The position numbers and the translations under genes were made by a program. A model generated the notes under the pieces. The model saw only the letters and a list, made by a program, of their open reading frames with translations, did not search any database and was not told the origin of the DNA. A stretch of 5,495 bases of DNA, from the IMG/VR virus record IMGVR_UViG_638341087_000011. One strand, given 5' to 3'. This DNA comes from a virus. Its lineage: Duplodnaviria > Heunggongvirae > Uroviricota > Caudoviricetes. Within the stretch, counting starts at the first letter, position 1, and each line of letters begins with the position of its first letter. Positions 2,396-3,373 of the stretch are shown here, piece after piece.

Positions 2396-2818
2396 GTGGC
2401 AAAAGTTTTTACACAAGAAGAGCGGGAAAAAATTAAAGGGCAGGTTGTTGAACTCGTACGCCAGAGTGGGCGTGAGACGTTACGGCAACTGGAAGTCAAG
2501 ACAGGTGCGACAAGATATCTGATGAGCGTTCTCGCAAGAGAGCTGGTTGCCAGCGGCGATGTATACAACTCTGGTTACGGGTTATTCCCGTCTGAACAGG
2601 CGCGTAAGGACTGGCAAAATGCCCGTAAAAAGCTCTCAAGGGCAAAGCTGAAGAAACCATCTGCGGTTGATCCGGACCTTATCTGGTCATTACCTGACGG
2701 AGAAATACGTCGCTACGACAGGCGTCAGAACATAATCTGTCGCGAGTGCCGGAAGAGTGAAGCTATGCAGCGCGTACTGGCGTTTTATCAGGGGAATTTT
2801 GAGGAGGAGGTGCGGTGA
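2396..2818 (+). CDS. Hypothetical phage protein, 140 aa, basic, possible DNA-binding
   Basis: ORF-track ORF with GTG start at 2396, 5 nt after a perfect AGGAGG (2385-2390). No Walker A motif seen. Its stop overlaps the next start (GTGA at 2815-2818). Confidence 0.6.
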   Translation: MAKVFTQEEREKIKGQVVELVRQSGRETLRQLEVKTGATRYLMSVLARELVASGDVYNSGYGLFPSEQARKDWQNARKKLSRAKLKKPSAVDPDLIWSLPDGEIRRYDRRQNIICRECRKSEAMQRVLAFYQGNFEEEVR

Positions 2819-3069
2819 GTGAATCAAAATGCCAGGTTAATGGCAACAAGATAGAACCATGCGCAGCACTGGCAAAGTCCCTTGAGCATGATGCTGAATA
2901 CACGATGCGAAAAGGTCTGCTGATATACAAAATCTGGAATGAGAGTTTAACTCGCGGTCCTGATTTTGTGATGTTGCGTTCCGGTGAATTTTCTAAATTA
3001 CCAGTTCGGGTTTCATTTTGTCCGTTCTGTGGTGAAAGTCTGAAAATGTGGGAGAACAGAAATGAATGA
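2815..3069 (+). CDS. Hypothetical small protein with possible zinc-ribbon (CxxC-type) motif
   Basis: GTG start at 2815, 4 nt after GAGGAGGAGG (2801-2810), overlapping the upstream stop. Protein contains C-x9-C near the N-terminus and CPFC near the C-terminus. Its stop overlaps the next start (ATGAATGA at 3062-3069). Confidence 0.55.
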   Translation: MSESKCQVNGNKIEPCAALAKSLEHDAEYTMRKGLLIYKIWNESLTRGPDFVMLRSGEFSKLPVRVSFCPFCGESLKMWENRNE

Positions 3070-3373
3070 AATTAAAGAAATACCAGTAGAACGTGATGAA
3101 TATGGCTGCTGGGCACATCCTGAATATGAGAAATTCTGTGACGGTCGGGAATATATTTCAACGGAAGAGTTTAACGCCTGGATGGAGGAAAATAATCTTC
3201 AATACGCCCTCTGCTTCAGAGATGAAGGATGTGCTGACCTTGATGCGTGTGATGCTGATATTTCTGCATGGGAACCGGAACGACCAGAGGGCAATGGATG
3301 GTTTATTGGTTCAATACATGACACCGAAGATGGCCCGGTTTGTGTATGGCTGAGAAATAAGGCCGAAGCATAA
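3062..3373 (+). CDS. Hypothetical highly acidic small protein (103 aa)
   Basis: ATG at 3062 is translationally coupled to the upstream ORF. By manual count the protein has about 25 Asp/Glu against about 8 Lys/Arg, plus 6 Cys. Preferred over the overlapping alternative frame 3093..3353 because of the coupling and its position as last gene of the coupled trio. Confidence 0.6.
   Translation: MNEIKEIPVERDEYGCWAHPEYEKFCDGREYISTEEFNAWMEENNLQYALCFRDEGCADLDACDADISAWEPERPEGNGWFIGSIHDTEDGPVCVWLRNKAEA

Follow-up and report, generated by a model that had tools for sequence, protein, structure and literature searches.

Three small genes behind the replication initiator of an Escherichia coli lambdoid prophage are probably accessory to an initiator-only module with a DnaT-like tail

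Phage replication modules have reportedly been sorted into classes, possibly including an initiator-only type, by Weigel and Seitz in FEMS Microbiol Rev in 2006. [quoted passage not shown] The stretch of viral DNA analysed here (IMG/VR record IMGVR_UViG_638341087_000011; 5495 bases, referred to at its full length as the window) was found by sequence search to be E. coli lambdoid prophage or phage DNA along its entire length, the top full-length match being E. coli 2013C-3264 (98.2% identity), with parts of the window matched by 4246 of 5426 complete E. coli genomes and by 26 phage records; it represents the early-right operon of a lambdoid prophage of E. coli, of the Rac/Qin type. In this operon the replication initiator gene is followed by three small overlapping open reading frames (ORFs), here designated ORF1, ORF2 and ORF3 (2396-3373), which a preliminary description of the sequence had taken to replace an expected helicase-loader gene. 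Our analysis indicates that the three are very probably accessory genes and not loaders, and that the module is an initiator-only one which would use the host DnaB-DnaC complex by way of an initiator with a DnaT-like C-terminal tail. The terms 'initiator-solo' and 'DnaT-like' were not found in the literature searched.

The preliminary description was right in its observation that no P- or DnaC-like loader gene follows the initiator, as established by profile scans and tblastn, and that no Walker A motif is present in the 140-residue ORF1 protein or the ORFs after it, as established by a motif search of the three proteins. The motif ([AG]xxxxGK[ST]) is absent from ORF1, ORF2 and ORF3 and also from the initiator; scans of Pfam, PHROG and NCBIfam returned no DnaC-, DnaB- or AAA+-type match for any of the three, and no match to the P family was obtained in Pfam (E<=1) or PHROG (E<=0.1). 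A tblastn search of the window retrieved nothing with lambda P, host DnaC or a DnaC-like protein of phage origin as the query (DnaC queries at E<0.01), and the positive control, locus L002, was found. A loader identity for ORF1, ORF2 or ORF3 was therefore rejected, as the Pfam, PHROG, NCBIfam and PADLOC scans, the Walker A search, tblastn and, for ORF1, a Foldseek search of PDB with an AlphaFold2 (AF2) model were all empty in this respect. The DnaC- or P-like domain which the preliminary description had allowed might yet be detected in one of the three was not encountered in the profile scans, tblastn or the ORF1 structure search; what proved correct was the other possibility that it had named, namely that the trio belongs to an unrelated nin-type gene set, as judged by gene families, position and synteny.

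A module without a loader gene is able to support phage growth. Tritos (LF82 prophage 3), the DNA of which is 97.7% identical to positions 783-2794 of the window, possesses the same initiator and ORF1, is without ORF2 and ORF3, and, according to annotation and tblastn, lacks any gene of a DnaC-, lambda-P- or host-DnaC-like kind throughout its genome. Tritos plaques on, and was propagated on, MG1655 hsdR- (PMC9928086). LLS is likewise loader-less and has been grown experimentally, and it is without ORF1, ORF2 and ORF3. Since Tritos forms plaques and LLS grows with no loader gene, the loader-less module is functional, and the module of the window has the features of the initiator-only ('O-only') class, with origin repeats in the O-like gene and no loader in the window or in the Tritos genome. 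As phages that work with this module or an analogous one do without them, we commit ourselves only to the view that ORF1, ORF2 and ORF3 are accessory and not needed for replication; on the gene orders compared, no member of the trio is a constant companion of the loader-less module.

The gene order in related prophages, a comparison which the preliminary description had recommended, proved informative in this regard. In 80 IMG/VR loci with an initiator C-terminal domain 98-99% identical to that of the window, a DUF977 gene (the family of ORF1) follows the initiator in 78, with a gap of 41-44 nt, and a DnaC-like gene follows the same initiator (98-99% identical) in two, L029 and L073, the former also carrying YdaW and the latter being on a contig that stops inside the DnaC-like gene. 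The two arrangements part exactly behind the initiator stop codon. Of the 5426 complete E. coli genomes, 3049 carry the initiator-DUF977 junction and 1325 that of the initiator with a DnaC-like gene. A gene of the ORF1 type also occurs downstream of a DnaC-like AAA+ gene and YdaW/DUF1627 in phiSTEC1589-Stx1c, Rac-SA53, vB_EcoS-673R7 and vB_EcoS-683R6; DUF977 is found directly after O-like genes of two types, that of the window and that of HannyBb, and in PhiR46_1 it comes after a small gene annotated as exodeoxyribonuclease VIII, with no O-like replication gene annotated upstream. ORF1 is thus also found behind DnaC-like and YdaW genes, and ORF2 and ORF3 are separable. Of the proposal that the trio replaces a loader, the missing loader stands and the replacement does not, as ORF1 lies downstream of a DnaC-like gene elsewhere and ORF2 and ORF3 occur in unrelated operons. 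A side observation concerns the alternative junction: in L029 (3746-5575) and L094 (2496-4319) the initiator stop codon has been lost (GGGTAA to GGGGGA), resulting in a fused ORF of 609 aa with the DnaC-like gene, and at this read-through junction, which is present at 100% identity in at least four complete genomes, RefSeq calls the organiser gene a pseudogene.

ORF1 (2396-2818, + strand; GTG start, 140 aa, isoelectric point (pI) 9.7) is a member of DUF977 (Pfam PF06163), which it matches with 105 bits against a cutoff of 22.1 with residues 1-135 of its 140 aligned to positions 1-133 of a profile of 134, and it is also a member of PHROG_142, 'Ren-like exclusion protein' (E 1.1e-47). The family is also called 'LygF', a name used for DUF977 in 20 or more phage records and presumably derived from a Salmonella Enteritidis locus; our search of the literature on DUF977 and 'LygF' retrieved no functional study, one passing mention of DUF977, and, for 'LygF', unrelated uses (fish lysozyme genes and others) together with two genome announcements for Salmonella. 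BLASTP aligned ORF1 with lambda Ren at 12 of 20 residues (E 4e-7), and the C-terminal region of ORF1 bears the Ren-like motif NIICRECRKSEAMQRVLAFY, the consensus common to both proteins being N(I/L)(I/V)x(R/K)ECRxSxAMxRVLAxY. ORF1 also holds the position of lambda ren, as the first gene past the replication genes. The AF2 model predicts a winged helix-turn-helix at residues 7-83, with a predicted local distance difference test (pLDDT) score above 90 for residues 11-70; it was built on a shallow alignment (relatives 87-97% identical), and its C-terminal half (pLDDT 53-67) is not interpretable. Foldseek searches of PDB with this model matched winged helix-turn-helix regulators only (MarR/GntR/ArsR-type, best E 0.011), and no AAA+, lambda-P-like or loader-like protein was among the matches. 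The only CxxC in the trio besides that of ORF2 is C115/C118 of ORF1. From its family, position and predicted fold, we infer that ORF1 most likely binds DNA as a regulator or acts as a factor of the exclusion type.

The initiator gene itself (1285-2355, + strand; 356 aa from the ATG at 1285, the RefSeq start, or 358 aa from the GTG at 1279) encodes a replisome organiser, in which an organiser domain at the N-terminus is joined to a helical domain at the C-terminus. The family of this C-terminal domain comprises 4156 representative clusters at E<=1e-3, in which the N-terminal partner varies (DUF1376, HTH_36, DnaD_N), and over its C-terminal 200 residues the window initiator is 65% identical to the O protein of phiSTEC1589-Stx1c, the tail being identical. 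A repeat search located two iteron clusters within the initiator gene, one of four GTCAC(G/A) repeats (1413-1452) and one of five GTCACG repeats (1673-1722), both with a spacing of approximately 10 nt, and directly after the second cluster three A+T-rich 12-mers, ACAGATAAAGAT (1720-1755). These iterons and A+T-rich 12-mers within the initiator gene probably represent the phage origin.

The last 17 residues of the initiator (2302-2352, + strand), VNHISEPDTEIPPGFRG-COOH, ending in SEPDTEIPPGFRG (IPPGFRG-COOH), resemble the end of E. coli DnaT, VNTVSEPDSQIPPGFRG-COOH, in a DnaT sequence identical to PDB 9zbt_D. A phmmer search of PDB matched the tail to the DnaT chains of 6aep, 2ru8 and 9zbt, BLASTP aligned it with DnaT at 15 of 25 residues (E 8e-8), and the tail conforms to the pattern ...S.PD..IP.GFRG-COOH. 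The window initiator is not a DnaT orthologue, as it scores 18.2 bits with NCBIfam NF002770 against a cutoff of 201 and aligns only with model positions 156-179; it appears to retain the tail alone, without a recognisable DnaT helical bundle. When IMG/VR was scanned for D..IP.GFRG followed by a stop codon, at least 120 matches were obtained, of which 109 end ORFs of at least 150 aa. Among the matches listed, to which the counts of this and the following survey refer, these 109 viral ORFs fall into 15 N-terminal clusters and 6 C-terminal body clusters, and the gene that follows is DnaC-like in 52 and DUF977 in 36, whilst 13 have some other gene devoid of Walker A, none has a lambda-P-like gene, and in the remaining 8 the contig ends. 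The O protein of LLS also ends in this manner (...VDTKIPEGFRG; L099 35014-35064), on a backbone unrelated to that of the window initiator (hhalign probability 4%).

A corresponding scan of species-representative genomes yielded at least 85 matches that are true protein ends, and every locus with a listed title belongs to the Enterobacterales. Approximately 63 of these 85 are DnaT itself, on orthologues from many Enterobacterales genera, and 60 are DnaT-sized ORFs followed by host dnaC; a further 19 are longer prophage initiators, 10 of them followed by a DnaC-like gene, the products of which are 53-58% identical to the phage reference, itself 51% identical to host DnaC. In four prophage initiators of the DUF1376/YdaU type (L300, L366, L414 and L416) the similarity extends much further, as the C-terminal 100 or so residues correspond to the whole DnaT C-terminal domain (residues 84-179; 44-49% identical), and each of the four whole-domain fusions has a DnaC-like gene behind it; where titles were listed, in two cases, the sources are Phytobacter and Kosakonia. 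Judged by this distribution, the tail is a portable motif, the order of tail-bearing initiator and DnaC-like gene mirrors that of host dnaT-dnaC, and the module of the window reads as this pair minus the DnaC paralogue. We put forward, as a tentative proposal that we hold to be possible rather than likely, that the tail ...(S/P)xPDxxIPxGFRG-COOH is a docking motif common to DnaT and many unrelated Enterobacterales prophage initiators, the partner being a DnaC-type loader or DnaB-DnaC.

In the mechanism that we consider likely, the initiator would bind the iterons within its own gene and open the adjoining A+T-rich repeats, and would then work like the host restart protein DnaT, as an analogue of it that is bound to the origin. 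[quoted passage not shown] The preliminary description had left a choice between host DnaC and a non-canonical loader within the trio; the evidence favours host DnaC, and none of the trio looks loader-like.

Several points weigh against this interpretation. No direct contact of DnaC with PriA, PriB or DnaT has been shown (PMC11087952), and a report on preprimosome structures describes the DnaT C-terminal domain as docking on PriA and forming filaments on single-stranded DNA (ssDNA), with the N-terminal domain suggested as the recruiter (PMC13377028); the purpose of the tail could accordingly be docking on PriA or binding of ssDNA instead. Both tail surveys are samples dominated by E. coli relatives, and the counts are therefore not independent events. 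The tail is absent from lambda O and from the O proteins of 79 lambda-P loci, but this control, that the tail is never found with lambda P, amounts to approximately a single lineage, P of the 79 loci being 98-100% identical to that of lambda. With respect to ORF1, DUF977 very often adjoins replication genes and an auxiliary role in replication may apply; the similarity to Ren spans 20 residues only, and to our knowledge the function of a Ren-like protein is known, by genetics, for lambda Ren alone.

The alternatives may be considered against this background, beginning with those that concern the trio and its junction with the initiator. That ORF1 is a non-canonical helicase loader or adaptor in place of P or DnaC would fit its place next to the initiator, which it follows immediately in 36 of the 101 IMG/VR loci with a tail-bearing initiator that could be scored (among the matches listed) and in 78 of the 80 loci with the window initiator, as well as the finding that DUF977 is almost always near replication genes in lambdoid phages, and the absence of Walker A is not decisive here because lambda P is not an ATPase either. 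We regard this as very unlikely, however, as at least four annotated phages have DUF977 behind YdaW and a genuine DnaC-like gene, ORF1 is absent from the loader-less LLS and from the arrangement of L029 and L094, and PhiR46_1 has no O-like gene annotated upstream of DUF977; moreover, the sole confidently modelled fold is a predicted winged helix-turn-helix, typical of DNA-binding regulators, and ORF1 is of the same family, and has the same C-terminal motif, as lambda Ren, without which lambda can still replicate. It might otherwise be supposed that a loader gene was deleted from a decaying prophage, leaving a dead module in which the junction of initiator and trio is a deletion scar, and the broken integrase gene (IS66-family element) and shortened repressor gene of the 2013C-3264 prophage, the occurrence of the same initiator with a DnaC-like gene and the sharp breakpoint right after the stop codon are all compatible with this. 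The identical junction is nevertheless found in the plaque-forming Tritos, in Evi, vB_EcoS-640R1 and vB_EcoS-813R8, which are phages obtained by induction or isolation, and in 3049 of the complete E. coli genomes (5426 in all), the O-only phages number 34 among 314 lambdoid ones (PMC12315714), and a boundary exactly at a gene end is of the kind that lambdoid modular exchange produces, rendering decay very unlikely; the plaques of Tritos argue strongly against it for this type of module, though not for this particular prophage copy.

The remaining alternatives accept an initiator-only module and differ in how the helicase is brought to the origin. The initiator might work via the PriA primosome, its tail or C-terminal domain docking on PriA and/or coating ssDNA at the opened origin or at D-loops, with helicase loading performed by the host restart pathway. 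This is a serious rival because the link of DnaT to DnaB-DnaC is not established and the DnaT C-terminal domain docks on PriA, being located on PriA and in ssDNA filaments in the preprimosome structures as described in PMC13377028, and the presence of the whole DnaT C-terminal domain on some prophage initiators agrees with it. So do the recombination classes of the phages in question: LLS is in the 'no Rec module' class and Tritos in the 'no anti-RecBCD' class, top-strand Chi-site counts reach 25 in the LLS class and 21 in that of Tritos, and RecBCD enhances the growth of LLS (PMC12315714), the latter two observations fitting D-loop or PriA-dependent replication. We nonetheless judge it unlikely, since, among the matches listed, a DnaC-type gene adjoins that of the tail-bearing protein at 60 host loci (dnaT-dnaC) and at 52 of 101 and 10 of 19 phage loci, a striking co-occurrence that points to DnaC as the partner, and the window initiator appears to have the tail only, without a recognisable DnaT helical bundle; the consulted text of PMC13377028 does not name the tail as part of the PriA interface. 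Finally, the resemblance of the tail to DnaT could be convergent or incidental, recruitment being due to another surface of the initiator or to DnaA-dependent host functions, in line with a similarity of only some 17-25 residues in the window protein and with the absence of the tail from 133 of the best 150 representatives of the C-terminal-domain family. Against this, the motif is at the extreme C-terminus every time, 109 of the 120 viral-contig matches (among those listed) are true protein ends, the motif is carried by many unrelated backbones (15 N-terminal clusters), it grades into whole DnaT-domain fusions, and the genome-sample loci with listed titles are all from the Enterobacterales, the same order as every DnaT match of that sample; coincidence is on these grounds improbable. 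An initiator-only module that draws on host DnaB-DnaC through its DnaT-like initiator is the reading that we retain.

The hidden-loader idea may consequently be removed as a false lead: the trio is ordinary and already catalogued (DUF977/Ren-like, PHROG_4030 and PHROG_1372) and annotated in RefSeq, and over half of the complete E. coli genomes contain the initiator-DUF977 junction. The preliminary description had met a real open question, that of loader-less replication, and had pinned it on the wrong genes, as the initiator next to the trio, with its DnaT-like tail, accounts better for the missing loader than the trio does. That tail represents a modest, testable lead on two questions, namely O-only replication and the handover of DnaB-DnaC by DnaT to the restart primosome. 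If it is a docking motif, it would explain how the helicase is loaded in O-only phages with no loader of their own (the window prophage, Tritos and LLS), and would supply a physical link from DnaT to DnaB-DnaC in PriA-dependent replication restart; the phage pair of tail-bearing initiator and DnaC-like gene would then be an origin-specific copy of dnaT-dnaC, and the loader-less module that pair minus a redundant DnaC paralogue.

ORF2 (2815-3069, + strand; GTG start, 84 aa) belongs to PHROG_4030 (E 1.7e-38) and ORF3 (3062-3373, + strand; ATG start, 103 aa, pI 4.1) to PHROG_1372 (E 1.1e-54). The zinc-ribbon-like arrangement CxxC...CPFC attributed to ORF2 by the preliminary description holds for the CPFC (C69/C72), the first pair being C6 and C16 and hence C-x9-C. 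The two pairs of cysteines (C-x9-C...CPFC, the second pair within FCPFCG) are conserved across the family, all four being invariant among 7 sequences down to 31% identity, which makes a zinc-binding module plausible; ORF2 is probably a small zinc-binding protein. Its profile gave a weak match to an archaeal RpoM-2 zinc ribbon (E 0.004, domain E 0.3), and the Pfam matches to A24_N_bact and DUF6980 were sub-threshold. Homologues of ORF2 are encoded by the P1-like phages P7 (Upf87.4), SJ46 and D6, by Erwinia phage Gungnir39 and by the virulent Salmonella virus VSiA, in which the gene sits between polymerase and helicase genes. ORF3 is an acidic, strongly conserved 'prophage protein' with the motif W.P..P.G.GWFIGSIHDTEDGPVC.WLR in an alignment of homologues, and 83 phage records contain it (Burkholderia, Pseudomonas, Klebsiella, Yersinia PY54, Vibrio and others); its homologues form 146 clusters, not one of which is named or carries a Pfam domain, and a profile search of PDB gave noise only (E >= 0.47) and no relative. 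An anti-defence or DNA-mimic role for ORF3 would be a guess from its pI. ORF2 and ORF3 travel as a pair only in some E. coli lambdoid phages, for instance in the early-left operon of mEp460_4F5 close to the integrase, and after lygF-rac19-ead in Rac-SA53. An obligate pairing was considered and rejected, as ORF3 occurs without ORF2 in L029 and L094 and the ORF2 homologues of P7, VSiA, Gungnir39 and ECML-606-1 are followed by unrelated genes. From these gene orders it appears that ORF2 and ORF3 shuffle independently among many phages as mobile accessory genes, such as typically make up the early-left and nin regions in temperate phages.

The three genes are tightly packed, and the overlaps and ribosome-binding sites reported in the preliminary description can be read directly from the sequence. 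The stop of ORF1 and start of ORF2 overlap by 4 nt at GTGA (2815-2818), and the end of ORF2 and start of ORF3 by 8 nt at ATGAATGA (3062-3069), all on the + strand. Shine-Dalgarno sequences precede ORF1 (AGGAGG, 2386-2391, + strand, 4 nt upstream of the GTG) and ORF2 (AGGAGGTG, 2805-2812, + strand, within the end of ORF1 and 2 nt upstream of the GTG), as had been stated, and ORF3 also has a weak one (GGAG, 3051-3054, + strand, 7 nt upstream of the ATG). The same three coding sequences are annotated by RefSeq at the 98%-identical 2013C-3264 locus, and no terminator-like site was found on the + strand between initiator and ORF3. The 8-nt overlap recurs in mEp460_4F5 and Rac-SA53, and a DUF977 gene overlaps the following gene by 4 nt in Rac-SA53 and vB_EcoS-683R6; as the overlaps are conserved in relatives, the arrangement is not due to chance. 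It would represent ordinary operon compaction giving coupled translation. Because the 8-nt overlap is kept by ORF2 homologues before genes unrelated to ORF3, in P7 (Upf87.4; L095 3001-3261) and in Salmonella virus VSiA (L096 1498-1752), the 3' end of the ORF2-type gene seems to be a general coupling site. The G+C content is 0.51-0.54 in the initiator and ORF1 and 0.42-0.44 in ORF2 and ORF3, a drop that fits separately acquired cassettes. In the intergenic region before ORF1 there is a two-codon mini-ORF, ATGAGGTAA (2372-2380), which aligns with the ATG of the DnaC-like gene of the alternative arrangement and may be a coincidence or a recombination scar.

The gene order of the rest of the window is that of an early-right operon. 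A cI/LexA-like repressor gene on the - strand continues past the left end of the window, followed by cro (562-804) and a YdaT/cII-like gene (788-1213), the start of which overlaps the end of cro by 17 nt (788-804) and the product of which gave a strong match to PHROG_163 'CII-like activator' and one of 39.9 bits, over 52 residues only, to Pfam YdaT_toxin. Beyond the trio, a gene for an sce7726-family protein (3679-4257, + strand) is convergent with, and overlaps by 41 nt, that of a beta protein (PF14350; 4217-5314, - strand); both are low in G+C (0.41 and 0.37, respectively), PADLOC related the beta protein to PD-Lambda-2_C models (E 6.5e-41) and the sce7726 protein to the model 'cll', and the pair is probably an anti-phage defence cassette inside the nin region. 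An IS1 element lies directly upstream of this pair in Rac-SA53. In the prophage of E. coli 2013C-3264 the integrase gene (L001 1-3265) is interrupted by the IS66-family element ISEc8 and the repressor gene (L001 7832-8170), labelled 'LexA family protein', is short (339 nt); this prophage copy is probably defective, though the same type of module is functional elsewhere.

Among known systems, ORF1 most readily recalls the ren/nin region of lambda, likewise coming next after the replication genes of the rightward early operon (in 80 lambda-like IMG/VR loci Ren is the gene behind P) and sharing with Ren the family PHROG_142 and the C-terminal motif. Lambda Ren, the phenotype of which is Rex-related, differs in its length of 96 aa as against 140 aa, in having no pairwise similarity to ORF1 beyond the 20-residue motif and, unlike ORF1, in failing to reach Pfam DUF977; from the DUF977 or 'LygF' proteins of Salmonella and Shiga-toxin phages ORF1 does not differ, being an ordinary member. 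The replication module shares with lambda O and P the iteron origin within the initiator gene and the position in the operon, whereas lambda has P, of which there is no homologue in the window, and an O protein that ends ...DWIYGVDL with no DnaT-like tail. Modules with an initiator and a DnaC-like gene, such as those of phiSTEC1589-Stx1c, vB_EcoS-673R7, POCJ13 and 75/02 Stx, have DUF977 downstream as in the window; these Rac-type and Stx modules carry a DnaC-like AAA+ gene (IstB_IS21 in Pfam) and YdaW/DUF1627 between initiator and DUF977, whereas the window is without both. The O-only phage LLS is comparable in having a single O-like initiator and no helicase or loader, and both initiators end in IPxGFRG, although the LLS protein has another N-terminal domain and another C-terminal body, and its gene is followed by a methyltransferase gene and not by DUF977. 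With E. coli DnaT, encoded in dnaT-dnaC, the window initiator has the extreme C-terminal peptide in common, and it is distinguished from DnaT by a predicted origin-binding N-terminal domain and an apparently different helical body.

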